IMG/VR virus record: IMGVR_UViG_3300028430_000584
From: a virus
Reading direction: 5' to 3' (one strand)
DNA: 54,772 bases
Shown here in pieces: positions 1,581 to 52,421 of this stretch. The position numbers were made by a program, and so were the translations under genes. The notes beneath the pieces were generated by a model that did not search any database, was not told where the DNA came from, and worked only from the letters and a program-made list of their open reading frames with translations. The stretch's first letter is position 1. Every line of letters begins with the position of its first letter.

Positions 1581-3692
1581 ATGGTCCTCTCCATCGACTG
1601 CGAAACCAGCTCAGCCTTTGAGCGAGACGCTTTCAACCGCCCCCTCCCCCATTCCGACCACTTCCACCCCGCCCGCATCCACGGCCAATCCGGCATCAGC
1701 ACCCTCGCCCGTGCCGTCCCCCTCATCTCCGTCACCCTCGTTCGCGCTGATCCAGCCCCCGGCTACGAGTGGCTCGCCAGCATCGAGCCCATCGACACCC
1801 GCCTCTTCCTTCTCCACAATCCCACCCACGTTCGCTGGCTCCGCGAGTGGCTCTCCCGTGCCACCCACCTCCTCGGTCACAACATCAACTACGACCGCTC
1901 CTTCCTCCGCTACTTCGGACTCCGCTCCTGCCTGCCCCTCGGCATTCCCATCATCGACACCACCATCCTCAACTACCTCGACAACGACGCTCGCCCCGAA
2001 CGCTCTCTCAAGGACCTCGGCCCTGTCTTCAACATCTATTCCTACTCCGACTCCACTCTTCGTTCCGGCTCCCGCTTCCCTTCTCCTCACTCGCCTGAAG
2101 CTCAACACTACTGCGCCCAAGACTCCCACAACGTTGTCCTCCTCGCTCGCGCCCTCACCCGTTCCATCATCTCCAAGCATGGCCCCTCTTCCCCCAAACT
2201 CTCAGCATCTGCCGCCTCCTTCTACTCCGCCACCCTCGACATCGCCCTCACCTTCATCGAGTCCGGCATACCCCTCTCTGCCTCCGCCCTCTCCTCCACC
2301 CTCTCCGACCACCTCACTCGGGCCGACGCAGCCGCTGCCGCCACCCTCACCCACGGCCTAACCCTCAATGGCGAAGGCTCTACCGCTTCCCGCCAATCCT
2401 TCATCGACCGAGCCATCGACGAGATCGACTCCTCTCCTGACATCCTTTCCTCTCTCAACCTCCCCACCATCCTCTCTCACCGTCTCATCAACCGCACTGG
2501 CACCGGCAAAGTCTCCACCGACGACAACAACCGCACCCTCCTCCTCTCCCTCCTCTCTCCCACTTCGCCACTCCGTCCCGCTTTCACCGAGTGGACCTCC
2601 TGCTCCCGCCTCAACAAAGTCATCTCCACCTACCTCTACCCCCTCCTCCACGGCTCACGCAACCCACGCTCCGACGGCTCGCGCGACACCACTTCCGTCG
2701 CTATCAAACCCCCCACTCAAGGTGTGTTTGCTGGGGGCTATGACCCGGACGTTCTGCTCGCCTATCCCTCCATCTTCGTCACCCCTTCGCAGGAGGGCAA
2801 AGACTCGACAGCAGGTGACAGCGGCGGTCAGTCCCAAGTCCGGCTCTCCTTCAAGAAGCCCGCCGCCCAGACCTTCCCGCCCGTCGTCAAGAAGTGCCTC
2901 CGCTCCCGCTACCGTGGCGGCTCCATCGTCTCGCACGACCTCTCCCAGATTGAGCTTCGCGTGCCCGGCGTGCTCTCTGGTGAGCCCACCCTCATCACCG
3001 AGTACCAGCTTCCCAAGCCGGACCTCCACACCAAACGCGCGGTCTTCGTCTTCGGCCCTTCCATCCTGTCCTCACCCGACTTCAAGTGCGGCGACATGCG
3101 CAAGGACCCTCGCCAGTGGGCCAAGAAGCTGAACTTCTCCGACCTCTACTGGGCGTTCGCCAAGCGGATGCAAGCCTCCATGCTCAAGGACACAGGCCGT
3201 CTCTTCCCCTTCGACTTCTTCCTCTCCATTGTCCGCTCCCGCCCCACCCTCCGCCCCGTTCTCTACGATTGGCAGTGCCGCCTCATCGCCGACACCCGCC
3301 GTCTTGGCCACATCACCCTGCCCTTCACCGGCGCAGGCCGCTCCTTCACCGACTTCGATCCCACTAACGAAGACCAAGCCTACATCACCTCCGAAGTCCT
3401 AAACTGCCCCATCCAAACGACAGCTGCCACCGTCCAGCGAGCCATCGAACATGCAGCACTCTCATCCAAAGAAGCCCGCTCCCTCCTCTCTCACGGACTC
3501 ATCGCTCCCTTCCTCGATGTCCACGACGCTTGCTACACCGACTGCCACCCCTCAGCCCTCTCGGCCTACCTCGCCCTCTATCAAGATGCGGTTGAACGCA
3601 TTGCGACTACGGGCTATTGGTCCCACATCTGCGAGCACTACGGACACTACGTCCCTCTCGTTGCCGAATGCACCATCCACGCCTCCACCTGA
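1581..3692 (+). CDS. Family A DNA polymerase with N-terminal 3'-5' exonuclease
   Basis: The translation shows Exo I-like LSIDCETS, Exo II-like LLGHNINYD, motif A DLSQIELRV, motif B RQWAKKLNFSDLYW and motif C VHDA. Start placed at ATG 1581, the first ATG after the upstream stop at 1540. Confidence 0.9.
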   Translation: MVLSIDCETSSAFERDAFNRPLPHSDHFHPARIHGQSGISTLARAVPLISVTLVRADPAPGYEWLASIEPIDTRLFLLHNPTHVRWLREWLSRATHLLGHNINYDRSFLRYFGLRSCLPLGIPIIDTTILNYLDNDARPERSLKDLGPVFNIYSYSDSTLRSGSRFPSPHSPEAQHYCAQDSHNVVLLARALTRSIISKHGPSSPKLSASAASFYSATLDIALTFIESGIPLSASALSSTLSDHLTRADAAAAATLTHGLTLNGEGSTASRQSFIDRAIDEIDSSPDILSSLNLPTILSHRLINRTGTGKVSTDDNNRTLLLSLLSPTSPLRPAFTEWTSCSRLNKVISTYLYPLLHGSRNPRSDGSRDTTSVAIKPPTQGVFAGGYDPDVLLAYPSIFVTPSQEGKDSTAGDSGGQSQVRLSFKKPAAQTFPPVVKKCLRSRYRGGSIVSHDLSQIELRVPGVLSGEPTLITEYQLPKPDLHTKRAVFVFGPSILSSPDFKCGDMRKDPRQWAKKLNFSDLYWAFAKRMQASMLKDTGRLFPFDFFLSIVRSRPTLRPVLYDWQCRLIADTRRLGHITLPFTGAGRSFTDFDPTNEDQAYITSEVLNCPIQTTAATVQRAIEHAALSSKEARSLLSHGLIAPFLDVHDACYTDCHPSALSAYLALYQDAVERIATTGYWSHICEHYGHYVPLVAECTIHAST
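2709..2724 (+). repeat. Dispersed repeat copy CCCCCCACTCAAGGTG
   Basis: Inside the DNA polymerase ORF, read as PPTQG. Confidence 0.95.
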
Positions 3693-4515
3693 CTTCTCCC
3701 ACAAGCCCCAGACCACCTACATCAACCAGCAATTCGGTCCCTTCGTCGTTCTCTCTTTCCACGCCCGCCATCTCAACAACAACTTCTTCAACGTCCGGGC
3801 CACCTGCTGCGGCACCATCCTCGTCCGCTCCGCCTCCTCCCTCTGCATCGCACGCCGTAACAACCGGCTCCGCTGCTCCTCCTGCTACGACAACAACCGC
3901 ACCCTCCTCGCCGCCTCCTCCTCAGAAGACCCCGACAGCCCACCTCCTCGCGTCTCTCGCATCACCTCCTCTCGCCGACGTCGCTCCAAGATCCCCCTCA
4001 TCGCCGCCACCCTCTCGCTCAAGGTTCAAGCGGTCTACTATCGGATCAGGCAGTACGGTCTCAAGTTCGTGCTCTCTCAATACGAAGCCGCCCTTGCCAA
4101 CCAGCCGATTCCCCCTATTCCCTACAAGCGACAACGCCCATGCCAGCCGAGCACACCATCCTCATCGACTCGCGTGAGCAGCACCCGCTCCCCCTCCCCT
4201 CCACGATCCACACAATCTCCGGCTCACGCTCGTCCGAAGGTCGGGTCATCCGCATCCACAAACTCGTTCGCACGCTTCCGACCGGGGATTACTCGCTCTC
4301 CTGTGCCGCTCCCCGCTGCATCATCGAGCGAAAAGGCTCCCCCTCCGAACTCTGCAAGAACCTCCTCACTGACGACCGAGCCCGAACCCTCGCCGCTTTC
4401 GACCGTCTCTCCGCCTTTCCCGTCCCCATCCTCCTCCTCGAATGCAACTCTTCCATCCTCTTCAAGCCAGCCGCTCCTTGGACCCACAACCCCGGCCCCG
4501 CCTTCGACCACCTAA
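3586..4515 (+). CDS. Hypothetical protein with a Cys cluster; long low-complexity read-through tail
   Basis: Frame of ORF 3451..4515. The plausible domain is YINQQFGPFVVLSF...CCGTILVRS...RLRCSSCY...LKVQAVYYRIRQYGL, ending near 4140. The nearest in-frame ATG is 3586, inside the polymerase gene. The first stop is at 4515. Confidence 0.35.
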   Translation: MRLNALRLRAIGPTSASTTDTTSLSLPNAPSTPPPDFSHKPQTTYINQQFGPFVVLSFHARHLNNNFFNVRATCCGTILVRSASSLCIARRNNRLRCSSCYDNNRTLLAASSSEDPDSPPPRVSRITSSRRRRSKIPLIAATLSLKVQAVYYRIRQYGLKFVLSQYEAALANQPIPPIPYKRQRPCQPSTPSSSTRVSSTRSPSPPRSTQSPAHARPKVGSSASTNSFARFRPGITRSPVPLPAASSSEKAPPPNSARTSSLTTEPEPSPLSTVSPPFPSPSSSSNATLPSSSSQPLLGPTTPAPPSTT

Positions 4516-4805
4516 TCCATGAACTCTCAACTCGCCGCATCTCCCTCTTCTTCATCGACACCAAGTCCGACGCAGGACGCAAGGCCGCAGGCGAACTCGT
4601 TGTCCGCCTCCTTCTCCTGCACCAGTACCCCCCACTCAAGGAGTTTGTATGCCCAAGCGACGTGCTCGTGACCAGCCCGCTGTCAACCTCGCCTACGCCA
4701 CAACCGCCGAACTCATCCGAGAACTCCGATCCCGGTCTCTCGACTTCGCCTGCTTCGTCAGTTCTCCCTACAAGTTCACCGGCTTCACCACCTCAGATGA
4801 GGTGA
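4140..4805 (+). CDS. ERCC4 (XPF/Mus81)-type nuclease domain protein
   Basis: ILIDSREQ ... LPTGDY ... IIERKGSPSEL matches the D-x-R-E / GDY / ERK pattern of ERCC4-family nucleases. The last ~52 aa are S/P-rich and overlap the next gene. Confidence 0.6.
   Translation: MPAEHTILIDSREQHPLPLPSTIHTISGSRSSEGRVIRIHKLVRTLPTGDYSLSCAAPRCIIERKGSPSELCKNLLTDDRARTLAAFDRLSAFPVPILLLECNSSILFKPAAPWTHNPGPAFDHLIHELSTRRISLFFIDTKSDAGRKAAGELVVRLLLLHQYPPLKEFVCPSDVLVTSPLSTSPTPQPPNSSENSDPGLSTSPASSVLPTSSPASPPQMR
4628..4643 (+). repeat. Dispersed repeat copy CCCCCCACTCAAGGAG
   Basis: 5 nt upstream of ATG 4649. Confidence 0.95.
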
Positions 4806-4918
4806 AGTTTCTCATCCACGTCCCCATCAACCGTCCCAACTTCCTCATCACCGTCCGTTCCCTTCTCGACTCCCACTCCCCCAACCCCGAAAGCACCTCC
4901 AATGACCACCCCCTCTGA
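4649..4918 (+). CDS. Hypothetical protein (89 aa)
   Basis: The ATG lies 5 nt after repeat copy CCCCCCACTCAAGGAG, which supplies the AAGGAG Shine-Dalgarno. Non-repetitive translation. Confidence 0.5.
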   Translation: MPKRRARDQPAVNLAYATTAELIRELRSRSLDFACFVSSPYKFTGFTTSDEVKFLIHVPINRPNFLITVRSLLDSHSPNPESTSNDHPL

Positions 4919-5462: not shown

Positions 5463-5849
5463 ATGCACCCGCACGCCGCACACCGCGTCGCGCGGGCTTC
5501 CCCCCTAGGAACCCCACCCGTGAAGATCACTGACATCTACTTCCACGACGGTACCACTCCCGTAGCCGCCCACGAAGGCCCCGTCTTCCTCATCCGCACC
5601 AACTGGGCGAGCCCCGCAGAAGTTCAGGAGTGCGACGACTGGTACGTCTGCCCCGAGCACGGCTTGATCGCCTACCGCTCTTACAAGGGCGAGGGTGACG
5701 TTATCCTCGGGTTGTGGAACAGCGAAACAGAGGACTTCGAGCCTGTCTTTGAGGCTACCCGGCAGAACGGTCGCCTCATCTGCCTCGGCCTGTGGCCTAC
5801 CCGTCAAGCCGCCCAAACCTACCTCGACACCTGCCAGCCTCGACCTTGA
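5463..5849 (+). CDS. Hypothetical protein (128 aa)
   Basis: ORF track. Its stop codon lies inside a reverse copy of the dispersed repeat. Confidence 0.45.
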   Translation: MHPHAAHRVARASPLGTPPVKITDIYFHDGTTPVAAHEGPVFLIRTNWASPAEVQECDDWYVCPEHGLIAYRSYKGEGDVILGLWNSETEDFEPVFEATRQNGRLICLGLWPTRQAAQTYLDTCQPRP

Positions 5850-5857
5850 GTGGGGGG
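5842..5857 (-). repeat. Dispersed repeat copy (reverse; CCCCCCACTCAAGGTC on the minus strand)
   Basis: Contains the TGA stop of 5463..5849. Confidence 0.95.
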
Positions 5858-5899
5858 TCTGGTGGTGTGCTATGATGAGGCACTCATCGGAGGCAGCAC

Positions 5900-6517
5900 A
5901 TGGCACGCGAACTCTCAAACGTCATCCCCCAGCTCAACGACCAGTTTGCCACCATCAAGTCGGGAACTTCGGGTTCTCCCTTGTTTGTGCTGCACGCTGA
6001 TGCAAAGCAGGTGACGACCCTGCCCCGCAACCCCTACGCCACGATCACCTCCACTGCTGCGGCTGACATGGTGTGCTGCCCCTCCGTCGTGAACACGGGA
6101 GCCAACTTCCTCGACCTCTACCACCTCTACCGGGGTGCGGATGGTACGGCCCCCTTCGTCCGAGTTTACGGCTGGGTGCCCTTCGTCACGTCCCGCGACG
6201 CGAACGCCAACCTCCCCGTCACTCTCTCTTCGGCGTTCCCTGCTCTCAGCGGCATGTGGATTCCCTTGCAAGAGCACCTGACCGACGCGCTGCTCGTGAC
6301 GTTTGATTCGTCCGCTGCTGTCGATCAGGCGATCACGAACAACACGCCTCCTATTGACGTACCTACGCTGCCCACTCCCGGTGCTACGAGCATCGCCTTC
6401 AAGCTCACCGCTCGCCGTTCCTTCTTCCTTTCCGGTGCCACCCGCGTCCTCGTCACCGTTCAGACGGCTTCGACGGTCGGCAACGAGTCGATGGTGGTTG
6501 GCCGCTTCGTCTGCTAA
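5900..6517 (+). CDS. Hypothetical protein (205 aa), possibly virion-associated
   Basis: ORF track. Immediately upstream of the tailspike gene. Confidence 0.45.
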   Translation: MARELSNVIPQLNDQFATIKSGTSGSPLFVLHADAKQVTTLPRNPYATITSTAAADMVCCPSVVNTGANFLDLYHLYRGADGTAPFVRVYGWVPFVTSRDANANLPVTLSSAFPALSGMWIPLQEHLTDALLVTFDSSAAVDQAITNNTPPIDVPTLPTPGATSIAFKLTARRSFFLSGATRVLVTVQTASTVGNESMVVGRFVC

Positions 6518-6538
6518 TCTCCCTACTTGGAGTGTGTC

Positions 6539-8692: not shown

Positions 8693-8695
8693 TCT

Positions 8696-9043: not shown

Positions 9044-9054
9044 AAGGCACTCCC

Positions 9055-9285: not shown

Positions 9286-9288
9286 CCC

Positions 9289-9964: not shown

Positions 9965-9968
9965 TTGA

Positions 9969-9984
9969 CCCCCCACTCAAGGAG
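9969..9984 (+). repeat. Dispersed repeat copy CCCCCCACTCAAGGAG
   Basis: 5 nt upstream of ATG 9990 and 5 nt after the tRNA-like element. Confidence 0.95.
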
Positions 9985-9989
9985 TTCAC

Positions 9990-11782: not shown

Positions 11783-11798
11783 CCCCCCACTCAAGGTG
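11783..11798 (+). repeat. Dispersed repeat copy CCCCCCACTCAAGGTG
   Basis: 21 nt upstream of ATG 11820. Confidence 0.95.
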
Positions 11799-11819
11799 TC
11801 GCAAGACACGGAGAACACC

Positions 11820-12371
11820 ATGCCTCGCAAGAAGATTCGTGCTCGCAAGTCAAACCGCTCTCGCCCCAGCAAGCTGACCGGGCTGCTCCCCGCCAGCCAT
11901 CCTCTGCTCCCCTACATCGAGCACCCCCGCTTCGGCATCATCGACCACCTTCGCGCCGATGTGCTGGCTGCTATCAACAGCGGAGACAACACCTTGAGTG
12001 GGGGGTTGACCCGGTTCAACAAGGCCCTCGCCAATCGGGGCTTCTCCATCCGGGTGAAGCCCACGATGTGGAAGCGGTGGATCGCTGCCCTCGGTATCAC
12101 CACCCGCCGCGCCTTCGTCGCCGAGACCGCCTTCGTCCCCCAGCCTCAGCCTGTTCCCACTCCCCGCTCACCGATCATGCAGCAGGAAGACCCGGTTCAG
12201 CAGCAGTGGCCCGAGCCGCAGACTGCCCTGCCTCTCGACGTGCGGGCTCCGAGCGAGGGAGTTCAGCCTACGTTGCCCGACAACCTCTTCGCCGGTCTCG
12301 ACGGTCAGCCCGATCAGGTGCCGGTCTACGCGACCGCAGGGATCGCGGGCATCAACAACATCACTCACTGA
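11820..12371 (+). CDS. Hypothetical protein (183 aa)
   Basis: ATG 11820 is preceded by GGAG. The basic N-terminus is MPRKKIRARKSNR. Contains a reverse repeat copy read as TLSGG. Confidence 0.5.
   Translation: MPRKKIRARKSNRSRPSKLTGLLPASHPLLPYIEHPRFGIIDHLRADVLAAINSGDNTLSGGLTRFNKALANRGFSIRVKPTMWKRWIAALGITTRRAFVAETAFVPQPQPVPTPRSPIMQQEDPVQQQWPEPQTALPLDVRAPSEGVQPTLPDNLFAGLDGQPDQVPVYATAGIAGINNITH
11990..12005 (-). repeat. Dispersed repeat copy (reverse)
   Basis: Inside 11820..12371, read as TLSGG. Confidence 0.95.
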
Positions 12372-13970: not shown

Positions 13971-13986
13971 CCCCCCACTCAAGGTG
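13971..13986 (+). repeat. Dispersed repeat copy CCCCCCACTCAAGGTG
   Basis: Intergenic. Followed by hairpin gggaggcttgg...ccagcctccc at 13988-14015. Confidence 0.95.
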
Positions 13987-14508: not shown

Positions 14509-14524
14509 CCCCCCACTCAAGGTG
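14509..14524 (+). repeat. Dispersed repeat copy CCCCCCACTCAAGGTG
   Basis: Between the terminator at 14462-14496 and ATG 14529. Confidence 0.95.
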
Positions 14525-18700: not shown

Positions 18701-19058
18701 CCCAACTCACATACTTGGGAGCCGACCTAAACATCTCACTGGCCGCTCGGCCTCCAATAGGCGACGTAACCGCAAACAGCCACACCCACGGGTTCGTGAC
18801 CACACCCCACAACGCCTTGCTCACCGATGAATCGCCCGTCGTCGCCTCAAGCCGCTGCCTGATCGTGCTGCTACGCTCAGCCGGAGTGAGCCGATCCTGT
18901 GCGAACATCGCAGCCATCCCCCCACTCAAGGTGGCTTCACCTTCGAGCAGCGAGGAGACGATGTTACGGGGTGCCGAGTAGATCGACTCGTAACCGAAGG
19001 GCGACACGTCAAACCCAGCTTGGCCGGGCAACGCACCTTGAGTGGGGGCTTGGCTCAT
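15606..19058 (-). CDS. Large virion-associated protein (1150 aa; putative internal or ejection protein)
   Basis: Longest ORF and last gene of the morphogenesis block. AGGA lies upstream of the ATG. Function assigned by size and position only. Confidence 0.5.
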   Translation of the reverse strand: MSQAPTQGALPGQAGFDVSPFGYESIYSAPRNIVSSLLEGEATLSGGMAAMFAQDRLTPAERSSTIRQRLEATTGDSSVSKALWGVVTNPWVWLFAVTSPIGGRAASEMFRSAPKYVSWVSDRFSVFKMLGLTNIRSQLGERVNQMAHRVGAVHDEVLNRPEVKRVFDAETALIKQHGLDPKIGLNWREYTDGDLRKTVARDISTLLHVHRDGMLTNVSPTRLMIDKQTGKLALETRKEVPALLTNKENFGRLVQQYGVDEYIKAVDGLFDMTAKRMTDDPKWLFRMARGTGSANDAFKDIHQLVKPKDKLTKALFARIKQMDPNNPDDVRELSETFVRRFIEDKHYMPRNTRELYRNGEVLDGRALSQEKNVRPSGLVFERSRSKVPYHPEDLAYAARLIDGVDLPQLASQAGDKPARLVRMYKEGNRQLKGLQGEPGAVYRIDSARSIDRYVKDYAHNEAMYMTDVGDLVRAADQQLWGNLKKSGAVVETKETFGDGVSYALPLDEVEKQLKGGVSIADLLGQEYVLAKGQYNRDLISHVVVPHLMGVQESHSTAARGAVLFTKQLARNFSEGVIGDGIRKTGEWGRRFVEKMGQYGNSTDAAGVARTASELQYRVSQTLYSSHLGIPNVGSALINLTQPMLFAGSWVGYGDVLAGYGAAFKRLGGYFSDRMKMGAKVISETERNQLIEKHFGDLTKFRVGNETRDLLEIGESGLQLYEGVGMGRRASAAAETTWDKFFHGTMSLFQKAEWVNRVTTAEAALRLAKRQGLGAADTALFADRVVKTTQFGGHWMDQPLAFLGGSQKVEGVARITSLAQNPLLRQLLSFPTRTLVTAFETVPRLGGREGLTGFTGFLNDMGRAMAMSALMWEVGKETLGIDLARAGMFAATTDAMPFMSQGRVDTRDSVLPLPPIIDIPVAGIKKLYEDGTGAAIAETLPRLVPGGIGFQRMFNVAPELPGPLQAVLGQKQFADWNNRAADGSVPIYREDGTLLRFEEPKRMVYRSLGVDLGAWNQPSQLDNWLVKNRDQIVGYQHEYMRKMLGNDPGGAEGVAREFERRYRLPLTVTRDQWRSFIDARTTPRTGRVLERVNPQIRAQFQQAASQLNPLNLQADPDPDLRQAAIQGMAPHQAYEAMTAYGAQPNGGAGQP
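18918..18933 (+). repeat. Dispersed repeat copy CCCCCCACTCAAGGTG
   Basis: Antisense within the 1150-aa gene, read there as TLSGG. Confidence 0.95.
19034..19048 (-). repeat. Dispersed repeat copy (reverse; CCCCCACTCAAGGTG on the minus strand)
   Basis: Codons 4-8 of the 1150-aa gene (APTQG). Confidence 0.95.
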
Positions 19059-27509: not shown

Positions 27510-28040
27510 TCACTTGCTGTTCCCCCCACTCAAGGTGTTGGTGACGGCAGCGAGTGCTCGCTTGGGGGCGGACAGGCAGCCGCAGCCGGTCGCACGCTTG
27601 GACCACGGCCAGCCCACTCGCCTGACCTCCGCCCACAGCGTCCGCACGCCCTTGACGACTGCCACGCCCAGCAGCCACGGATAGGGCACACCCTCCCACG
27701 TCAGGCCCAGCCACTTCATCTTCTTTGGACCCGCCCGTGTCGGCGTGGGCTTGCTCGCGGCAGCCGCCCGCTCTCCGTCGCTCATGGCCTTGCCCACCAG
27801 ATCGCGTAGGCCGGGGTGCCCGATGTTCGGCCACCTCGGCTTCATCTGGTCCACTGTCAACTGGACCAGCCCGGTCCTCACCTCAAGAGCCTGCTGGGTG
27901 CCCGGTCCCAACTCGTGGCACCGCTCACAGAACACATCGTCCACACCCAGCACAAACCCCAACTGTACATCGAGCAGGCCGCACGACTGGGGCCTGCGCA
28001 TGGGGCACTTGCCCATCATCTCGACCGCTTTCTGATTCAT
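27510..28040 (-). CDS. Cys-rich hypothetical protein (176 aa)
   Basis: ATG 28040 lies 5 nt after a sense-oriented repeat copy. The C-terminus TLSGGNSK is encoded by an antisense repeat copy. Confidence 0.5.
   Translation of the reverse strand: MNQKAVEMMGKCPMRRPQSCGLLDVQLGFVLGVDDVFCERCHELGPGTQQALEVRTGLVQLTVDQMKPRWPNIGHPGLRDLVGKAMSDGERAAAASKPTPTRAGPKKMKWLGLTWEGVPYPWLLGVAVVKGVRTLWAEVRRVGWPWSKRATGCGCLSAPKRALAAVTNTLSGGNSK
27522..27537 (+). repeat. Dispersed repeat copy CCCCCCACTCAAGGTG
   Basis: Encodes TLSGG at the C-terminus of 27510..28040 on the minus strand. Confidence 0.95.
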
Positions 28041-28045: not shown

Positions 28046-28060
28046 CACCTTGAGTGGGGG
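28046..28060 (-). repeat. Dispersed repeat copy (reverse)
   Basis: 5 nt upstream of the minus-strand ATG at 28040. Confidence 0.95.
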
Positions 28061-33387: not shown

Positions 33388-35391
33388 TCACATCTGCATC
33401 GGCGGAGCACCCACGGCCCCGCCAGCCGATTGTAGCGGATTCATCGGACCCTGATTGAGCGTCGCCATGTCCACCGGGCTAGGCACCGCTTCAGGCAGCG
33501 TTCGACCCGAGAACTGAATCAGCGCATCTCGATAATCACCCAGCGCGTTCTGCACATCGGGTGACGCAAACTGCACGACGGGACTCGGCAAGAAGTCACT
33601 GAGCAACGCCAATTCCACATCGGGCCGCGTGTTGTACTGCGTCAGCACCACCTCGCCCGGCGACTTGCCATCGTTGAAAATGGTCAGGATGCGGATCACC
33701 GCTGTCTCCTGTGCCGCCTTTTCACCGTCGATGTCCGCAGCCAAGTCGATGCCCTGCTTGATGCAGTACCGCTTGAACGACTCAGGCGTGTTCACCCCGA
33801 GCTTCAATAGCTCAACCGCCTCCATCTTGGCCACCAGCGGATTCTGGGGAGAACCCTCAGTCAGGTCCACCGTCAACAGATTGACGTTGGGCAGCGGGTT
33901 GTCATTGAACTGCACCTGCATGGTGTCCGTGTCAATGCTCACACCCGCCAGATCAAGCGTCAACCTCGACACCGGGATCGGTCGCGGACTAGTCAACAAC
34001 ATGCTCGCAGCATCAATAAGCATCGAGCGATACACGACCGCACAAGCCGCCGTCAGATTGGTCGTGCCCGTCACAGTGCCCGACTTCAACTTGTCGTCCA
34101 GCATCCGCAACCCAGCTGCACTCTCCACTCGACCCTTCTCTCTGGCCAAGTCAGGATACGGATCGACCGTCTGCATGAGCCCCTGAATAAACGCCGCACC
34201 TCGACCTGCCGCGTCTCCCGTGTTGAACGGCGTGATGGGGAACGGTCTGAAGTTCGACTCGTAAAGGGAGGGATCGGGCGAATGGAACAACGCCTTGAGC
34301 CCCGGACCCACCTGCTTGAGCGTGGCATTCGCGTCCATCGTCTGCGGCAACACCACGCACCCAAACGAGTCCATGTCGCTGATGTTCTGCAACATCAGCT
34401 TGACCATCTTCTCCAGCGACCTCGCGTAGTGAAACACGATGTCAAACGCACCGATACCGTAGAACGACCCGTTCTCGATGAACCGTGCGATGCCGATGCT
34501 GGGATAGAGCGGCACGCCCTCTGCCTTCTGATGCAGCAGAATGGATCGCCCACTGCTGACTACAAAGTCATGGACCAACCCGCCGTGCCCGATGTTCCAC
34601 AACTGCCGCGTAAGAATCACATCCTCAAACATCTCATCTCGCGCCTTGCCCGACCCCCCACTCAAGGTGCTTCCGCTTGAGCGGCTGGGCGAGTGCGGAT
34701 AGGAGTTGGCTTCGTGGTGATCGGGTGCGAGCGTGTCGCCGATTCGCCTTCTGTACTTCTTGCAGCCCTGAAGCTCCTTCTCCGTCAGCTTTCGGTCGAG
34801 CTTCTCTTCGAGCATCTTCAGGGGAAACGCTTGGATGCGGATGAACGACTGCTGCTTGGTGTAGTCGGTCGTGGCGGCAGGGAACGGCAGCAACTCGCGG
34901 GGGTGAATCACCTCAAGATGACCCGTGAGCCCCACGACCGGCAAGTCCTTGACGTGACCCTGAATGCCCACACATCCCAGCGAGGCGAGCACGTGCGCGG
35001 CCATCACCTTGAACGGCCTGATGGTGTTGTCGTTGATGATGTTGTCCACGATCACCTGTGCGCCGGCTCGTTCACGCATCGACCGCAGCGACGAACCTGT
35101 GCGACCCACCCTCGGCCTGAAGTCAAGAGAGGCAAGCAGTCCGGTCACTTGGTCGATCTTGCGGACGACTTCCGGTCCCTGCAACTCCAACCGGCCCTGC
35201 TCGTCCAGCTCGTAGGGCCTGATCGTGTTCGACTTGGGATCGAACACGTCGAAGCGGCGGCACCCGTTCAGGTAGTGGTAAACCAGATTCCAGATGAGAC
35301 GACGGTACGAGAACGCCGTGAGCTGCTGCTGCACATGCTCCTCGATGAGGGCTGCGAGGGCTTCCGGGTTGTCAGGCAACGCAACGTGCAT
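33388..35391 (-). CDS. Portal protein candidate (667 aa)
   Basis: Size and position directly downstream of the large terminase. No motif was verified. Confidence 0.55.
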   Translation of the reverse strand: MHVALPDNPEALAALIEEHVQQQLTAFSYRRLIWNLVYHYLNGCRRFDVFDPKSNTIRPYELDEQGRLELQGPEVVRKIDQVTGLLASLDFRPRVGRTGSSLRSMRERAGAQVIVDNIINDNTIRPFKVMAAHVLASLGCVGIQGHVKDLPVVGLTGHLEVIHPRELLPFPAATTDYTKQQSFIRIQAFPLKMLEEKLDRKLTEKELQGCKKYRRRIGDTLAPDHHEANSYPHSPSRSSGSTLSGGSGKARDEMFEDVILTRQLWNIGHGGLVHDFVVSSGRSILLHQKAEGVPLYPSIGIARFIENGSFYGIGAFDIVFHYARSLEKMVKLMLQNISDMDSFGCVVLPQTMDANATLKQVGPGLKALFHSPDPSLYESNFRPFPITPFNTGDAAGRGAAFIQGLMQTVDPYPDLAREKGRVESAAGLRMLDDKLKSGTVTGTTNLTAACAVVYRSMLIDAASMLLTSPRPIPVSRLTLDLAGVSIDTDTMQVQFNDNPLPNVNLLTVDLTEGSPQNPLVAKMEAVELLKLGVNTPESFKRYCIKQGIDLAADIDGEKAAQETAVIRILTIFNDGKSPGEVVLTQYNTRPDVELALLSDFLPSPVVQFASPDVQNALGDYRDALIQFSGRTLPEAVPSPVDMATLNQGPMNPLQSAGGAVGAPPMQM
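34654..34669 (+). repeat. Dispersed repeat copy CCCCCCACTCAAGGTG
   Basis: Antisense within the portal gene, read as TLSGG. Confidence 0.95.
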
Positions 35392-35531: not shown

Positions 35532-35547
35532 CACCTTGAGTGGGGGG
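35532..35547 (-). repeat. Dispersed repeat copy (reverse)
   Basis: In the terminase-portal intergenic region, 140 nt upstream of the portal ATG. Confidence 0.95.
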
Positions 35548-38425: not shown

Positions 38426-39096
38426 TGCTGGGCCTCCTCATCCACATCGAAGTAGGTCGTTATCGACTCGGGCTCGTCCTCGAAGAGTATAGCCGCCTGC
38501 TTGCGAGCCTGCATCGCTCGCTCGAAGGTTGCCACATCTCGAATCTGCATGGCGTGAAGAGCGAGTGTGGAGGCTGCGGTGTCAAGCGAGGCTTTCAGGT
38601 CAGCGGGCGCGGGGAGCTGGTTGAGCTTGCGAAGAGCGTACAGCTCACTGACGAGAAGTCGGGCAGTGTCGCGTAGACGGTCGAAGTGAGATGAAGGGGC
38701 AACGTCGGGGAGGGATGCTGGGATGCCGTGACCCCCCGGAGCAACGAGTGATCGAAGTACGAGCTTGAAGGTGTCGAACTCAACGAAGGCGTGTCTTGGG
38801 TGAAAGTAGACAAGGGGAACTCCGTAGAGGGTGCAGAGGTGGGCGAGGGCTTCCACAGTGAAGCCCGTCGGTGCGAGCGTGCGGTGCAGATAGCGGAGCG
38901 AGTAGAAGCGGAGGCCCGGCCCAAACGACACGTAGTCCGCGACAGGCGAGTCGGTCTGGGTCGTGAAGGCGGAGGGGTCTTTGGCGTTGCGATGGTAGAC
39001 ACCGGGCGGTGCATAATGCACCGAGTCATCCCCCCCACTCAAGGCGTTGGGAGGGGGAGGGTCAGAGGACGGGGGGCGTGAAGACGAGGGGGGCAT
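38197..39096 (-). CDS. Hypothetical protein (299 aa)
   Basis: ATG 39096 lies within ORF 38197..39288. The varied central sequence is DDSVHYAPPGVYHRNAKDP...AMQARKQAAILFEDEPES. The tail is low-complexity. Confidence 0.4.
   Translation of the reverse strand: MPPSSSRPPSSDPPPPNALSGGDDSVHYAPPGVYHRNAKDPSAFTTQTDSPVADYVSFGPGLRFYSLRYLHRTLAPTGFTVEALAHLCTLYGVPLVYFHPRHAFVEFDTFKLVLRSLVAPGGHGIPASLPDVAPSSHFDRLRDTARLLVSELYALRKLNQLPAPADLKASLDTAASTLALHAMQIRDVATFERAMQARKQAAILFEDEPESITTYFDVDEEAQQCHPNFQDNCPSSPGLAETLWSIPAEQKSQPPSSTPTGSERRASKTASTKRNSSIRSSPTSAPPTPPSLSEPSPSS
39030..39046 (+). repeat. Dispersed repeat copy CCCCCCCACTCAAGGCG
   Basis: Antisense within 38197..39096, read as ALSGG. Confidence 0.95.
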
Positions 39097-39517
39097 TGGC
39101 TGAGCCGAGCGTGAGGGGGAAATCGGACAGGGGGTTGATGGCGGCGGTACGAGATGATAGGATGGTGGGATCAAGTTGGCGACCACCGCGCACAGGCTTT
39201 TGAACTGGCATAACGGATTGAGTTGAAGCTCTCCTTGCGGCGGTCGCAACAGGCACAACTGAAGATGAAGAGCGGCCTCGGCCCACACCTTGAGTGGGGG
39301 TCATGAGGATGTCGCGGCTGCTCCGGTTGCTCCCGGTGGCTTTGGCCTTCTGGGCGATGTCTTGGGTGATGGCTGCGAAGTCTTGGGCACGGAAGTTGTG
39401 CCGCATGGAGTGCAGGATGGAGAGCTGGGTGGCGGGGGAGAGTTTGGACGAGCCTTCGAGGATTGAGAGGTAGTTGTTGAAGGAGCGGTCGGACAGTGTG
39501 CCGATCGTGGGTTTCAT
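39062..39517 (-). CDS. Hypothetical protein (151 aa), first gene of the minus-strand block
   Basis: ATG 39517 (MKPTIGTLSDRSFNNYLSILEG...). Contains a sense-oriented repeat copy read as TPTQG. Confidence 0.4.
   Translation of the reverse strand: MKPTIGTLSDRSFNNYLSILEGSSKLSPATQLSILHSMRHNFRAQDFAAITQDIAQKAKATGSNRSSRDILMTPTQGVGRGRSSSSVVPVATAARRASTQSVMPVQKPVRGGRQLDPTILSSRTAAINPLSDFPLTLGSANAPLVFTPPVL
39286..39300 (-). repeat. Dispersed repeat copy (reverse)
   Basis: Sense within 39062..39517, read as TPTQG. Confidence 0.95.
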
Positions 39518-40987: not shown

Positions 40988-41003
40988 CCCCCCACTCAAG
41001 GTT
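40988..41003 (+). repeat. Dispersed repeat copy CCCCCCACTCAAGGTT
   Basis: Left arm of the terminator hairpin. Confidence 0.95.
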
Positions 41004-41035: not shown

Positions 41036-41050
41036 CACCTTGAGTGGGGG
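41036..41050 (-). repeat. Dispersed repeat copy (reverse)
   Basis: Right arm of the terminator hairpin, followed by TTTTT. Confidence 0.95.
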
Positions 41051-41153: not shown

Positions 41154-41165
41154 CGAGTTGTAGTT

Positions 41166-45294: not shown

Positions 45295-45315
45295 CCCCCA
45301 CCCAAGGCACCCTGC

Positions 45316-45579: not shown

Positions 45580-45594
45580 CCCCCACTCAAGGAA
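45580..45594 (+). repeat. Dispersed repeat copy CCCCCACTCAAGGAA
   Basis: 5 nt upstream of ATG 45600. Confidence 0.95.
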
Positions 45595-46337: not shown

Positions 46338-46353
46338 CCCCCCACTCAAGGTC
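46338..46353 (+). repeat. Dispersed repeat copy CCCCCCACTCAAGGTC
   Basis: Starts 1 nt after the stop codon of the Ubl gene. Confidence 0.95.
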
Positions 46354-46434
46354 AGTGACTCACCGTGCTGACTCGGGCAGGATGGCCTATCGGCTGTCCT
46401 GCTCTTTCCATTCCCCCACTCAGGAGTTCCCATC

Positions 46435-51028: not shown

Positions 51029-51268
51029 ATGCGTGAAATCGTACACATCAACAAGTCCGTCACCGGCATCACCCACGCTTCTCGTGAGATCCTCATCGAA
51101 CCCTGTCCTCCCAACACCGCCTGTTCCTACCGTGTCTGGGTACAGATTGAGATCGGCGGCTTCGACACCCCTCTCATAAAGCAGGAAAGTTACATCTCTC
51201 TCAGCCGTGACGAATACCTCTCCCTCCGCTTTGAACTCGACCGTCGCTTCGAGATCACCCATGCGTGA
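51029..51268 (+). CDS. Hypothetical protein (79 aa)
   Basis: ATG preceded by TAAGGAGCACACC. Directly downstream of the E1 gene. Confidence 0.5.
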   Translation: MREIVHINKSVTGITHASREILIEPCPPNTACSYRVWVQIEIGGFDTPLIKQESYISLSRDEYLSLRFELDRRFEITHA

Positions 51269-51929
51269 GCCCACTCCCCTGCCTATCGCACCCTGCACCT
51301 CCTGTCCCCAGCACGAGACCGCCCTCTTCAATCCCGTCCCTCCCATCCTCCCCTCCTCCCTCACTCACCCCCCTCTCATCATCCTGCTCCCCGCCCCCTC
51401 GACCGATTCTCGCTCCGGCTCCATCCTCGCCTCTCGCACCTACCGTCTCGTCTCCTCCGCCTTCATTCCCCTCCTTCCCCCCATCTCACCCATCTTCATC
51501 CCCATCCTCCGCTGCGTCGTCACCGCCCCCTCCCGCGTGAAGCCCGCCTTCTACACCACCTGCTCTCGAACCCACCTCCTCCCCACCCTCCTCTCCCTTC
51601 TCCCTCACCTTCCCCCCACCCCCACCCCCATCCTCTGCATCGGCGCGCCAGCCGTCCGCTCCCTCCACTCTCTCCTCCACTCTCCTTGCTCCCAAGCCGA
51701 AGCCTTCTCCACTCAAGGCTCCGTCTTCCCGCTCCCCTCCACCCCCTTCTCCATCCAACGTTTCGCTACGCTCGACCCCGCCGAGATCCTCCTCCGCCCC
51801 GAGCGCAAGTCCACCGCCTTCTCCCACCTCTCCCTCCTCTCCACCCACCTCTCCGGCTCACCACCCGCCATCTCCACACCCACCATCGTCCCACCCGGCC
51901 CACCCCCCACTCAAGGTGCTTCACAATGA
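51261..51929 (+). CDS. Possible family-4 uracil-DNA-glycosylase-fold protein with a degenerate active site (222 aa)
   Basis: CTSCP...PPLIILLPAPSTDSRSGSILAS...ILRCVV...ILCIGAPAVRSL parallels the order of UDG4 motifs (CxxC, GEAPG..ED..G.PF.G, N.VKCRP, LG..A). The catalytic residues differ. Confidence 0.3.
   Translation: MREPTPLPIAPCTSCPQHETALFNPVPPILPSSLTHPPLIILLPAPSTDSRSGSILASRTYRLVSSAFIPLLPPISPIFIPILRCVVTAPSRVKPAFYTTCSRTHLLPTLLSLLPHLPPTPTPILCIGAPAVRSLHSLLHSPCSQAEAFSTQGSVFPLPSTPFSIQRFATLDPAEILLRPERKSTAFSHLSLLSTHLSGSPPAISTPTIVPPGPPPTQGASQ
51903..51918 (+). repeat. Dispersed repeat copy CCCCCCACTCAAGGTG
   Basis: 7 nt upstream of ATG 51926. Confidence 0.95.
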
Positions 51930-52159
51930 GCGACAAGCCTGCTCCCGATACGCCCTTCTCCCTCTTTCGTGAACTCGCCGAGATGGATGACTGGATGGTA
52001 CCAGTTACTCGCTACGGGAACGTAGAAGGTCACGAGTGCTTCTTCTGCCGGGCCAAGGTGCATTTTGGCTATATCACAGGTATAACCGTAGAGCACGAGC
52101 CCACTTGCCTCTATGTTCGTGCTCGTGCCCTCCTCGCATCCACCCCTCACTCAAGGTAA
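51926..52159 (+). CDS. Hypothetical protein (77 aa)
   Basis: The ATG lies 7 nt after repeat copy CCCCCCACTCAAGGTG. Confidence 0.5.
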   Translation: MSDKPAPDTPFSLFRELAEMDDWMVPVTRYGNVEGHECFFCRAKVHFGYITGITVEHEPTCLYVRARALLASTPHSR

Positions 52160-52166
52160 CTAACCC

Positions 52167-52406
52167 ATGCACATCGTCTGTACCGACCATCGGCCCACCT
52201 CTCCCCACAAGCGCAAGGTCAGCGAACTCCCGCCCAACACCGTCGTCACCGTCGAAGGCAGCCCCTACGTCGTCATGGTGTCCGGCGTTGCACTCATTGA
52301 CCTCGCTGGAGATCTGCGATGCGTCTCCCCCGACCTCAGCGAATACATCATGCGGCAAACCCCCTACGTCATACACGGTTCCTTCCGCATCAACTCCGTC
52401 GGCTAA
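52167..52406 (+). CDS. Hypothetical protein (79 aa)
   Basis: ORF track. Preceded by a degenerate repeat copy, CCCCTCACTCAAGGTA. Confidence 0.5.
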   Translation: MHIVCTDHRPTSPHKRKVSELPPNTVVTVEGSPYVVMVSGVALIDLAGDLRCVSPDLSEYIMRQTPYVIHGSFRINSVG

Positions 52407-52421
52407 CCCCCACTCAAGGCG
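52407..52421 (+). repeat. Dispersed repeat copy CCCCCACTCAAGGCG
   Basis: 6 nt upstream of ATG 52428. Confidence 0.95.

Follow-up and report, generated by a model that had tools for sequence, protein, structure and literature searches.

Some phages rely on Chi sites to restrain DNA-degrading enzymes. No octamer is more frequent than Chi in the Chi-rich phages LLS, P1 and MD8, with 23 sites in LLS (1 per 1.86 kb), 50 in P1 (1 per 1.9 kb) and 32 in MD8, and nearly all sites of such phages share one orientation (20/23 in LLS, 32/32 in MD8) (PMC12315714). Among lambdoid phages, Chi abundance accompanies the absence of a RecBCD inhibitor (PMC12315714). Stoperators lie predominantly in one orientation relative to transcription, their motifs co-vary with their repressors, and their arrays are modelled as position weight matrices (PMC6550527). 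The SAS of cluster K mycobacteriophages, which are 13 nt long and contain a Shine-Dalgarno core, occur almost entirely in one orientation and solely upstream of start codons, and SAS sites were scanned with up to two deviations permitted (PMC3203893). Site-specific nicking has been described as well: TACTRTGMC occurs at 14 sites in the 46 kb of phage tf, at positions similar in its relatives, and in the described nick-site systems all sites lie on one strand (PMC3517423).

Count, positions and extent of the word

The window, meaning the whole 54,772-nt stretch of viral DNA analysed here, consists of a genome of 54,631 bp plus an assembly overlap of 141 bp. The 13-mer CCCCCACTCAAGG matches this genome exactly 22 times, 15 times on the plus strand and seven on the minus strand, and is absent from 100 of 100 dinucleotide-preserving shuffles, reproducing the count that a first-pass annotation had obtained from the window alone. 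The plus-strand cores start at 2710, 4629, 9970, 11784, 13972, 14510, 18919, 27523, 34655, 39032, 40989, 45580, 46339, 51904 and 52407, and the minus-strand cores at 5844, 11992, 19036, 28048, 35534, 39288 and 41038; the copies listed earlier are thus real, with starts 0-2 nt off where an optional extra C or TG had been included. Only two one-mismatch copies occur, CCCCCACCCAAGG at 45295..45307 (+), either a decaying or a nascent copy, and CCCTCACTCAAGG at 52144..52156 (+), and the two-mismatch copies at 24615, 46413 and 51706 are at chance level. The degenerate copies previously placed at about 45296, about 52143 and 46413 were recovered, and the one placed at 51719 is actually at 51706.

Immediately around the core, C stands at -1 in 16 of the 22 copies, T at +1 in 17 and G at +2 in 18, and the sequence farther out is random, so that the unit is 13-16 nt, in agreement with the earlier view that the outer sequence is not conserved. 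The full word reads CCCCC(C)ACTCAAGG(TG), or (CA)CCTTGAGTGGGGG(G) on the G-rich strand. Once the 13-mers are masked, the genome shows no enrichment of the shorter core CCCCCAC, indicating that the whole 13-mer is read. Copies on opposite strands pair up at spacings of 49-256 bp.

Conservation in close relatives

A search of related phages, as the first-pass annotation had suggested, found the same 13-mer in four partial genomes of close relatives (L259, L260, L264 and L265; 75-87% nucleotide identity). The word is exact at 17/17 alignable orthologous positions in these four, with flanks 38-95% identical, which shows that selection acts on the DNA word itself and strongly supports the proposal of a nucleic-acid-level function beyond ribosome binding. 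The same inference is supported by the shorter words of distant relatives, which have no link to gene junctions, and by the DNA polymerase A gene (1581-3692), where the word occupies indel-rich loops, is encoded with rare codons, and has been gained and lost; the copy in the window (2710..2722, +) lies in the sense direction in an indel-rich variable loop, reads P-T-Q-G and is exact in L259 and L260.

Identity between the genome and its relatives is discontinuous at copies 5844, 51904, 27523 and 39032. Exactly at copy 5844, identity jumps from 0.69 to 0.92 against L259 and from 0.11 to 0.82 against L260, and a near-identical tract common to the genome and L259 starts right past it. Such discontinuities at word copies are possible recombination junctions.

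Copies at gene starts, within genes and in hairpins

The eight start codons that the first-pass annotation had assigned to word copies are all present, 6-9 nt past the core (23 nt for ATG 11820). Copies at 4629..4641 and 9970..9982 (both +) lie 7 nt upstream of ATG 4649 and ATG 9990, that at 14510..14522 (+) lies 6 nt upstream of ATG 14529, and that at 28048..28060 (-) 7 nt upstream of ATG 28040, all four in a putative Shine-Dalgarno role, which at 4629 falls to the AAGGAG end; orthologous copies are exact in L259 and L260 for 4629, in L259 for 9970 and in L264 for 28048, the last being found at 13156 in L265. Two copies directly follow a stop codon: 45580..45592 (+) begins after ORF 45316-45579, with ATG 45600 coming 7 nt past the word, and 52407..52419 (+), present in L259, begins after ORF 52167-52406, with ATG 52428 coming 8 nt past the word. 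ORF 51261-51929 has a copy in its final codons (51904..51916, +), with ATG 51926 following after 9 nt; L259 and L260 match this copy exactly though its flanks are just 0.45-0.46 identical. The intergenic copy at 11784..11796 (+), with the PD-(D/E)XK nuclease gene ending 41 nt earlier and ATG 11820 following 23 nt later, has an equivalent in L259 at 20143. Judged by position, intergenic copies in the window clade have a secondary role, with AAGG(T/A)G at their end acting as the Shine-Dalgarno sequence.

Three antisense copies previously taken as intragenic may also be start-associated, with a start codon 9-10 nt past the G-run. For the copy at 27523..27535 (+), at the 3' end of ORF 27510-28040 and exact in L264, this codon is GTG 27513, with which a glycosyltransferase gene begins, and the G-run precedes it by 9 nt; for that at 39032..39044 (+), at the junction of ORFs 38197-39096 and 39062-39517 and exact in L264 and L265, it is an in-frame GTG (274 aa), which the G-run precedes by 10 nt. 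The 1150-aa ORF has a copy close to its 5' end (18919..18931, +) whose G-run, on the gene strand, stands ahead of one ATG at +1 and another at +10, where the true start may lie. The complement GAGUGGGGG may serve as a Shine-Dalgarno sequence at three places. A sense copy lies just past ATG 19058 of the 1150-aa ORF (19036..19048, -), forming the 5' arm of a predicted long-range RNA stem with copy 18919 (-73.9 kcal/mol, z = -5.5).

Within the portal gene (33388-35391), the antisense copy at 34655..34667 (+) reads L-S-G-G and is exact in L264 and L265, and the spacer between the large terminase and portal genes holds a further copy (35534..35546, -) with equivalents at 5881 in L264 and 5748 in L265. 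An antisense L-S-G-G copy also lies in ORF 11796/11820-12371 (11992..12004, -), and none of the copies listed for L259 falls at the apparently corresponding place. The copy at 5844..5856 (-) runs antisense over the stop of ORF 5520-5849, 43 nt before ATG 5900, and that at 39288..39300 (-) lies in the sense direction in ORF 39062-39517, with an equivalent in L264 at 2157. In every copy spanned by a called ORF, the word begins at codon position 2, as expected from the near-fixed reading frame reported before, so that such copies read P-T-Q-G in the sense and L-S-G-G in the antisense direction; the earlier 'ERCC4' label for ORF 4140-4805 found no Pfam support. In the window clade, word sites are ~4x enriched near gene ends. 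A dialect of 13-16 nt would be hard to fit into proteins and would for this reason accumulate at gene junctions, in flexible loops and in one tolerated codon phase.

Past the DUF5906 helicase gene, 23 nt from its stop, copies at 40989..41001 (+) and 41038..41050 (-) form the 5' and 3' arms of an inverted pair that is conserved in L264, with 14-nt arms that are 100% complementary. Its predicted hairpin (-53.2 kcal/mol, z = -7.5), followed by UUUUUCGUU, is intrinsic-terminator-like, and from its position the pair is best read as an intrinsic terminator, again a secondary role. The intergenic copy at 13972..13984 (+), 21 nt past the stop of ORF 13360-13950, is followed by a hairpin (predicted fold -30.1 kcal/mol, z = -2.3), and the copy at 46339..46351 (+), 2 nt past the stop of ORF 46082-46336, precedes a terminator-like hairpin at 46375-46404 (-32.7 kcal/mol, z = -3.5).

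Clade-specific words across the family

The phage belongs to an uncultured aquatic family with at least 304 IMG/VR relatives and GC contents of 0.40-0.68, whose members carry clade-specific C-run words on both strands, mostly within genes, at ~1 per 1.5-2.5 kb. These words are the top 8-11-mers of their genomes. Exact clade words are 15-35x enriched in every clade, whereas their one-mismatch variants stay at 0.9-1.5x background, a gap typical of Chi, restriction or uptake words and not of a graded operator array. The dialects follow the portal tree and keep a common core over the whole GC range, one clade alone spanning GC 0.46-0.68. On the G-rich strand they read (G)AGTGGGGG; AGTGGGGA; AGCGGGGA; (C)GTGGGGGGA(C); AGTGGGGGGA; GCTGGTGGGG; and, in the window clade, CCTTGAGTGGGGG. 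Each dialect is compact (8-11 nt), G-rich and without weaker extension; that of the window clade is 13-16 nt and pushed toward gene junctions. Among the relatives, 6-8% of the words lie at gene junctions vs 7% of random positions, with no enrichment, and antisense copies equal or outnumber sense ones (63:51, 84:49 and 32:26). Strands are split 15:7 in the genome and ~65:35 family-wide.

By these sequence comparisons, we showed that a G-rich signal is scattered on both strands throughout the family and that the word is the dialect of it used in the window clade, and we established the exactness of the word, the selection on it, the family-wide dialects, their independence of orientation and, by position, the secondary Shine-Dalgarno and terminator placements. 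That the word is such a dialect, and the Chi-like reading this suggests, were beyond the reach of a single-sequence reading.

Alternative readings of the word

Taken as stoperator, SAS or promoter, the word in each case fails a test of orientation or position. We consider it unlikely, though deserving of serious weight, that the word is the site of a phage-encoded sequence-specific dsDNA-binding protein, a global silencer, roadblock or genome organiser comparable to P1 C1 or to the monomeric repressors that bind stoperators in cluster A mycobacteriophages, which would co-evolve with its sites and so generate clade dialects. An asymmetric site of 13-16 bp is the typical footprint of a monomeric two-domain DNA binder, here in 22 dispersed copies conserved in relatives, and the tree-following dialects with their constant core across GC 0.40-0.68, the enrichment near gene ends in the window clade and the copies at stop codons or before terminator-like hairpins (13972, 40989 and 46339) point the same way; among the matches listed, no other IMG/VR virus has the 15-mer at more than one copy. 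However, recognition is all-or-none, with one-mismatch variants at background where operator arrays are normally graded, word orientation is independent of transcription, most family copies are intragenic without link to promoters or junctions, and Pfam on the scanned ORFs of the genome found no HTH, repressor or integrase. The stoperator-like operator array of the first-pass annotation is contradicted by the 15 sense and 7 antisense copies, by antisense copies equalling or exceeding sense copies in relatives and by the all-or-none recognition. The same Pfam scan found no HNH, GIY-YIG or other nicking-enzyme domain, one of several points that make a phage-encoded site-specific nickase or strand-specific endonuclease improbable. 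Likened to the systems of T5, phiKMV-like and tf/LUZ24-like phages, such an enzyme would leave localised single-strand interruptions in virion or replicating DNA, and its nicks might start strand-displacement synthesis or recombination. T5, phiKMV-like and LUZ24-like phages encode a family A DNA polymerase, as does this phage; the known nick sites are likewise exact words, similar in length and count, the sharp drop from exact to one-mismatch copies fits enzyme recognition, and identity breakpoints lie at several word copies. A nick, modification or packaging site, as once suggested, is possible, but known nick-site systems use one strand only and here 7/22 copies lie on the other, in opposite-strand pairs 49-256 bp apart, and nicks leave no sign in assembled sequence.

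A primarily RNA-level expression element, start-associated (Shine-Dalgarno plus enhancer) like the SAS, would account for the eight or nine sense copies with ATG 6-9 nt past AAGG and the three antisense copies with a start codon 9-10 nt past the G-run; the word is likewise 13 nt with a Shine-Dalgarno core. Antisense copies in the same transcripts would then pair with their complements, sequestering ribosome-binding sites or forming terminators, and each G-form copy in the genome indeed has a C-form copy earlier in the transcript, with very stable predicted stems (-53 and -74 kcal/mol, z = -7.5 and -5.5). We nevertheless judge this very improbable: there is no start codon for the copies in the DNA polymerase, the portal and ORF 11796-12371, in distant relatives the words lie mostly within genes and away from gene junctions, with half or more in antisense, convergent pairing is inconsistent across clades and marginal here (P = 0.055), and, unlike SAS, the word occurs in both orientations and inside genes. 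An mRNA translation or processing element, also proposed from the window, survives as a secondary role only, because half of the family copies are antisense and intragenic. Hardly credible, finally, is a host-genome repeat, DNA-uptake-sequence-like or REP-like, carried passively or by recombination. DUS/USS are exact 10-13-nt words that occur in both orientations, with a preferred reading frame in genes and an inverted pair as terminator, all of which the word resembles, and CCCCCACTCAAGGGGG units occur in a REP-like array on a Halothiobacillus MAG contig. That array, however, is a palindromic 33-bp tandem unit otherwise unlike the genome, other multi-hit loci are long repeats in unrelated DNA, no genome stretch among the 120 matches listed has dispersed multiple copies, and the dialects follow the phage tree with a common core across the family's GC range.

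Comparison with Chi systems

That the word is a dialect of a family-wide signal suggests a Chi-like reading, and our best model, held tentatively and at less than even confidence, is a Chi-like word controlling a helicase-nuclease. An enzyme of the RecBCD/AddAB type, most simply the host's but conceivably a phage-encoded counterpart, would enter at a double-strand end and read one strand during unwinding, and on meeting the exact word from its 3' side would switch from degradation to a recombination-promoting mode. With one word per 1.5-2.5 kb, oriented both ways, the loss of injected or replicating phage DNA would be limited whichever end the enzyme entered, and the words would also feed recombination-dependent circularisation, replication and exchange. 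Dialects tracking phage phylogeny over a wide GC range would be explained by a phage-encoded reader no less well than by a host enzyme, and MAG bin labels on the host conflict (Acetobacteraceae vs Bacteroidota).

Several comparisons count against this Chi-like model. The word is split 15:7 between strands, unlike the single or nearly single orientation in MD8 and LLS, and at 13-16 nt is far longer than the natural Chi compared (5-8 nt); the phage has recombination-type genes of its own, the PD-(D/E)XK nuclease and an AAA_24-like (Sak4-like) ATPase; and, among the matches listed, no genome or other virus carries multiple copies of the word. On the other hand, two dialects contain an experimentally defined Chi, GCTGGTGG of E. 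coli RecBCD and AGCGG of B. subtilis AddAB. The Chi-containing dialect needs 10 nt (GCTGGTGGGG) and retains the family core GTGGGG, so the overlap with canonical Chi could be a coincidence, for which a rough estimate is 1-3%. In density and rank, as the most frequent 8-9-mer of its genome at ~1 per 1.5-2.5 kb, the word matches the documented Chi-rich phages.

An exact word conserved in diverging sequence

The window carries 22 exact copies of the 13-mer CCCCCACTCAAGG, as read on the C-rich strand, 15 on the + and 7 on the - strand, which reproduces by exact count the number claimed in the first-pass annotation; the copies named there are real, and only their start positions shift, by 0-2 nt, optional flanking bases having been included. 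No copy occurred in 100 dinucleotide-preserving shuffles, and the mismatch count that had been proposed alongside this comparison adds, at up to two mismatches, only 5 sites: two with one mismatch (45295 and 52144) and three with two mismatches, against 2.8 expected by chance. A C precedes 16 of the 22 copies (position -1), 17 have T at +1 and 18 have G at +2, and the bases further out are random, so that the unit spans 13-16 nt, as had been suggested. This word is the top k-mer both in the window and in its relatives.

Searches with the DNA polymerase and portal proteins recovered this phage from other assemblies as well, in one bin labelled 'Acetobacteraceae' and another labelled 'Bacteroidota', conflicting labels that make the bins uninformative on the host, together with close relatives at 75-84% protein identity. 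The contigs of these relatives are colinear with the window at ~70-87% nucleotide identity, and a check of related phages for the 13-mer, recommended earlier, found 9 copies in L259, 6 in L260, 8 in L264 and 5 in L265, each a partial genome. At all 17 alignable positions the word is exact, the 80 flanking bases being 38-95% identical; by our own arithmetic, survival of 13 letters by descent at ~72% identity would be ~1% per site. The claim of a function at the nucleic-acid level is upheld by this exactness where the flanks diverge, and, as judged from these alignments, selection acts on the word itself. Word sites also turn over among the relatives: in L259 and L260 the N-terminal part of the polymerase holds one copy more, at a point where the window encodes R-A-D-P-A, and both polymerase sites lie within indel-rich loops.

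Identity between the window and its relatives changes abruptly at copies 5844, 51904, 27523 and 39032, and a tract nearly identical to L259 begins right after copy 5844. These discontinuities are suggestive of recombination at the copies, a reading confounded by the same positions being gene boundaries as well. Window positions 5865-10214, and especially 6615-8864, are 99-100% identical to L259, with neighbouring DNA at 45-90% identity, a sign that the gene for a 717-aa protein was exchanged recently; the left edge of the stretch of raised identity coincides with copy 5844. Directly upstream of copy 9970, the sequence GGTTCGACTCCGGCCCGAGGGA (9930-9969), conserved in L259, resembles a tRNA over its T-arm and 3' end; neither ARAGORN nor Rfam calls a tRNA at this position, and the element might be what is left of a tRNA, or else an att-like core. 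L259 also holds at 7087-7329 an 18-bp tandem repeat, GGCTCGGCACGGGTCTAC, in 13.4 copies, within a gene that has no such array in the window.

The 717-aa early protein (6539-8692, +) was considered as a primase or as the reader of the word, meaning whatever recognises it, and was set aside, its distant homologues occurring in lambda-like phages that have no such word. Neither Pfam nor PDB offers a match to this protein, whose sequence looked beta-helix-like, and its homologues number just five. The only distant ones (37-38% identity) are encoded between terminase and portal in unrelated lambda-like phages that binning has repeatedly grouped with Phycisphaerales or Planctomyces MAGs.

Genome organization

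Bases 1-141 of the window are identical to bases 54632-54772, which we read as a circular assembly path at k = 141, implying a true genome of 54,631 bp. The window has a GC content of 0.61, and its + strand is strongly C-rich except at 36-42 kb; the GC skew is inverted over 36000-42000 (+0.2 to +0.34) and runs from -0.1 to -0.5 elsewhere. Early and replication genes occupy the + strand from ~41 kb through the map origin to 15 kb, and the structural arm occupies the - strand at 15.6-39.5 kb. Genes assigned on the + strand encode a family A DNA polymerase (1581-3692), a PD-(D/E)XK nuclease (10486-11742), an AAA_24-like ATPase (12383-13330) and a DUF5906 (SF3-type) helicase (39742-40965), the last being alone among the + strand genes in having a coding strand rich in G. 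On the - strand are the large terminase (35630-37651) and a 667-aa ORF (33388-35391) that matches no family; its length and its adjacency to the terminase gene lead us to regard it as the portal. The structural arm also includes a DXD glycosyltransferase (26782-27513, -; Gly_transf_sug, E = 8e-12), directly downstream of a small gene bracketed by copies 28048 and 27523; L264 has the same gene.

A further + strand cluster at 46435-51018 encodes a 687-aa protein without an assigned family, together with proteins that resemble a Prok-JAB deubiquitinase (48470-50044) and ThiF/E1 (50041-51018). The close relative L259 shares the cluster, which is missing at the corresponding place in the distant L261, and it has the look of an accessory module for ubiquitin-like conjugation or anti-defence. 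Most other window ORFs match no family. Among the ORFs scanned, no helix-turn-helix, repressor or integrase family was found, in a phage most of whose proteins match none, and Pfam returned no RNA polymerase family; tRNA and Rfam scans of the window were likewise empty. A megablast search of 50,697 phage records with the window gave no match, and hence no cultured relative at the DNA level, and tblastn of the portal or the large terminase against cultured phages gave none either.

Placement of the copies

Eight sense copies are followed, 6-9 nt after AAGG, by a start codon, serving the ATGs at 4649, 9990, 14529, 28040, 45600, 51926 and 52428 and the TTG of the 1150-aa ORF. The association of eight copies with start codons thus holds at this spacing, except that ATG 11820, which had been counted among them, lies 23 nt after its copy. 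In addition, the nominally antisense copies 18919, 27523 and 39032 present GAGTGGGGG(G) on the gene strand 9-10 nt before a start codon, one of which is the GTG of the glycosyltransferase gene. Start-associated copies therefore number 8-9 sense and possibly 3 antisense, or 8-12 of 22, and the rest are intragenic or follow stop codons. Copies 13972 and 46339 and the pair 40989/41038 come after stop codons, where they precede or form hairpins; the pair is predicted to fold at -53 kcal/mol (z = -7.5), and because a U-run comes after the fold, the hairpin looks like an intrinsic terminator. The gene-poor stretch adjoining this hairpin, at the switch in GC skew sign, holds five copies of TGGGGAGGGA (41083-41308), three direct at ~80-bp spacing and two inverted, which are iteron-like, so that this stretch may be an origin or control region.

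The remaining copies lie inside genes, namely the DNA polymerase, the portal, ORF 11796-12371 and ORF 39062-39517. A near-fixed reading frame had been claimed for such copies, and indeed every copy whose full length overlaps a called ORF uses one codon phase, reading P-T-Q-G in sense and L-S-G-G in antisense, with codons that are rare in this genome of GC3 ~0.77. Relative to genes, 15 copies are sense and 7 antisense, the intragenic ones being 3 sense versus 5 antisense. Across the window clade, the portal-tree group to which the window belongs, 23-25% of copies lie within 40 nt of the stop of a long ORF, compared with 6-7% of random positions. In our reading, a word of 13-16 nt is hard to accommodate in proteins and therefore collects at junctions and loops, where the junction copies are oriented so that AAGG(T/A)G can act as a ribosome-binding site; we therefore regard the Shine-Dalgarno and terminator roles as secondary.

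Clade-specific dialects across the phage family

A portal profile search of IMG/VR identified at least 304 relatives at ~40% portal identity with conserved gene order, of which 80 loci were fetched. In almost every one of these loci, the most frequent 8-11-mer is a C-run word, and its variants, here called dialects, follow the portal tree. On the C-rich strand, the word reads CCCCCACT(C) in clade i (GC 0.40-0.55), (G)TCCCCCCAC(G) in clade ii (GC 0.46-0.68), CCCCACCAGC(C) in clade iii (GC 0.59-0.65), TCCCCGCT in clade iv (L326, L327 and L293), TCCCCCCACT in clade v (GC 0.45-0.57), TCCCCACT in the single locus L344 and CCCCCACTCAAGG in the window clade (GC 0.61-0.64). Read on the other strand, the dialects are (G)AGTGGGGG, AGTGGGGA, AGCGGGGA, GTGGGGGGA, AGTGGGGGGA, GCTGGTGGGG and CCTTGAGTGGGGG, all of them G-rich. 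One clade that first seemed to have no motif proved to have its own dialect, TCCCCGCT. The 3.2-kb contig L263, a relative with 43% DNA polymerase identity, contains within its polymerase gene the inverted pair CCCCCTCAGAT-N8-ATCTGAGGGGG (2252-2281) and a third copy at 981, which may represent yet another dialect.

The dialects of the relatives are compact words of 8-11 nt without a weaker extension and occur on both strands at ~1 per 1.5-2.5 kb. Recognition appears sharp throughout, exact words being enriched 15-35x and one-mismatch variants standing at 0.9-1.5x background. In the structural arm of relatives, antisense copies equal or exceed sense copies (63:51, 84:49 and 32:26); strand splits there are 47:33, 35:16, 28:18 and 12:6, with 38:21 in clade iii, a count that includes the replication-arm locus L261, and the family-wide split is ~65:35. 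The modest bias toward one genome strand, 15:7 in the window, could be purely compositional. Words of the relatives show no enrichment at gene junctions (6-8%, versus 7% of random positions). The window clade differs from the rest of the family in the concentration of its copies near ORF stops, and in the window the short core is not enriched once the 13-mer is masked. A search for the reader by gene content, within 10 kb on either side of the portal gene, found no protein family that separates the clades.

Convergent pairing of copies was discarded as a family property, clades i and iii favouring convergent and clades ii and v divergent arrangements, with an alternation in the window that is marginal (P = 0.055). 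A mobile cassette or invertible segment between inverted copies was also rejected, the relatives being colinear and the DNA between the pairs homologous. Contig ends falling at word copies, taken as a proxy for nicks, amounted to only 2 of ~8 ends, too weak a signal to use.

Occurrence outside the family

The 15-mer form of the word gave 18 matches in IMG/VR, all single, and almost all of the matches listed for GTDB genomes and for JGI metagenomes (at least 120 each) were single as well. Among the matches listed, no genome stretch carried dispersed multiple copies, and of the three loci with more than one match, L028 is a palindromic, REP-like array, and L217 and L226 are long repeats of unrelated DNA. 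L028, at 190-490 of the Halothiobacillus MAG contig DYMR01000024.1, consists of ~33-bp tandem units with the palindromic CCCCC(A)CTCAAGGGGG and was dismissed as a chance match; it has no other similarity to the window. A literature search for the 13-mer sequence returned only unrelated primer sequences.

A Chi-like signal as the proposed role

The density of the word, its top rank, its all-or-none recognition, its indifference to gene structure and its dialects together lead us to propose, tentatively and with less than even confidence, that it is a Chi-like signal for a helicase-nuclease. Such an enzyme would enter at a DNA end and, on meeting the word, would switch from degradation to recombination, which would limit DNA loss and promote recombination-dependent circularisation and replication. 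Experimental definition of Chi is not known to extend past a handful of taxa, and two of the dialects each contain one of the sequences so defined, GCTGGTGG of E. coli RecBCD and AGCGG of B. subtilis AddAB. This overlap could be coincidental, at what we estimate to be a very small probability, because the dialect with Chi inside it requires two Gs beyond Chi and retains the core of the family.

Chi-rich phages (Bobay et al. 2013, as cited in PMC12315714) offer the closest parallel. The E. coli phage LLS has 23 Chi sites, one per 1.86 kb, P1 has 50, one per 1.9 kb, and the Pseudomonas phage MD8 carries the Pseudomonas Chi at 32 sites (Zheng et al. 2025, PMC12315714). As in these phages, an exact G-rich word is the most frequent word at octamer scale, recurs at ~1 per 1.2-1.9 kb within and between genes under positive selection, and is strongly enriched with its one-mismatch variants at background; in the window, 22 copies stand against 0 expected. 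The natural Chi sites cited here, in contrast, are 5-8 nt long, far shorter than the 13-16 nt of the window word and shorter than the 8-11 nt of the relatives. In the Chi-rich phages described so far they are also overwhelmingly in the one orientation that is active relative to the DNA end, at 20:3 in LLS and 32:0 in MD8 (PMC12315714), whereas the window stands at 15:7 and both orientations are used across the family, a contrast whose weight depends on the packaging mode and genome ends of these phages. The present phages further differ from the Chi-rich ones in that the dialects track phage clades with a common core kept, and in that the window phage carries its own PD-(D/E)XK nuclease and AAA_24-like ATPase. 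Length, orientation, the extra Gs, the tracking of phylogeny and the phage's own nuclease and ATPase are what keep our confidence in the Chi-like reading low.

Alternative readings

Dialects that track phage phylogeny over a wide range of GC would fit a phage-encoded reader at least as well as a host enzyme. It is less likely than not, though by no means remote, that the word is no host Chi at all, being instead the target of a family-wide, phage-encoded all-or-none reader (a nuclease regulator or nickase) whose specificity has drifted into dialects, with the GTGGGG core kept and an extension to 13-16 nt in the window clade, and thus a 'self-word' by which the phage marks or manages its own DNA. 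Genome and reader would then co-evolve, ~20-35 sites being rewritten at each change of dialect. A DNA-binding protein of the phage, with sites co-evolving as stoperators do, is unlikely on our assessment, even though the word, like stoperators, is an asymmetric 13-bp sequence in tens of copies genome-wide, with lineage-specific dialects and some copies at stop codons or in short intergenic spacers. Stoperators of the cluster A mycobacteriophages L5 and Bxb1 have a predominant orientation with respect to transcription, and their arrays are modelled with position weight matrices (PMC6550527, PMC9283540). They belong to temperate phages with an identified repressor, and neither a repressor nor an integrase was found in the window ORFs scanned, in a phage most of whose proteins match no family; mixed orientation, all-or-none recognition and many intragenic copies set the present word apart. 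The stoperator-like array suggested in the first-pass annotation is accordingly contradicted by orientation, at 15 sense and 7 antisense in the window and antisense equal to or above sense in relatives. Promoters and start-associated sequences (SAS), too, call for a fixed orientation with respect to genes, and in addition for a place upstream of them (PMC3203893, PMC6550527); the word shows neither, and all three are excluded. A promoter for a phage RNA polymerase or sigma factor faces, besides mixed orientation, many intragenic copies and a window in which Pfam found no RNA polymerase family.

Recognition by a phage nickase or endonuclease, which we hold improbable, has in its favour that the localised nick sites of T5, phiKMV-like and tf/LUZ24-like phages are likewise exact words, with a 9-19-nt consensus in 4-14 copies at similar positions in related phages. 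Those sites, however, are all on one strand (PMC3517423), and the word, known here from assembled sequence, lies 15 times on the + and 7 times on the - strand, so that, of the nick, modification or packaging site once suggested, the nick part would depart from every known nick-site system. Still less probable is a primary role in RNA or at start codons. The SAS/ESAS of cluster K mycobacteriophages resemble the word as 13-nt conserved sequences with a Shine-Dalgarno core upstream of ATG codons; they recur in different subclusters but not in the genome of the host, virtually always precede a start codon by 3-7 nt with a single orientation, and are confined to the non-structural half of the genome (PMC3203893). 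With only 8-12 of 22 window copies start-associated and the words of relatives not start-associated at all, the translation element proposed earlier does not hold as the main role. The DUS of Neisseriaceae and USS of Pasteurellaceae are exact 9-12-nt words in both orientations, with a reading-frame preference in genes, inverted pairs that act as terminators and species-specific dialects, all features that recur here. They are a property of the chromosomes of competent bacteria, whereas the present word belongs to a phage lineage and no word-rich genome appeared among the matches listed, and a host repeat of the uptake-sequence or REP type is the least probable of these readings. What probability remains belongs to something outside them.

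Significance and comparison with known systems

If the Chi-like reading is true, these phage genomes would reveal which Chi sequences uncultured aquatic bacteria use, the window clade would have by far the longest natural Chi-type word, and Chi enrichment would be a general phage strategy reaching well beyond the lambdoid phages of enterics and pseudomonads. If the reader is instead phage-encoded, the family would represent a new kind of genome-wide self-marking system, in which a single protein and its ~20-35 sites per genome co-evolve throughout a group of at least 304 known relatives. On either reading, the dialect words provide a simple sequence signature for classifying members of the family, and the window clade exemplifies a DNA-level word co-opted as a ribosome-binding site and a terminator arm.

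Genome-wide exact words are already known in phages as Chi enrichment, nick sites, stoperators and SAS. What is new here is that an entire family of uncultured aquatic phages shares one G-rich core in clade-specific dialects, which are used on both strands and, in the 13-16-nt form, have been co-opted as a ribosome-binding site and a terminator arm.
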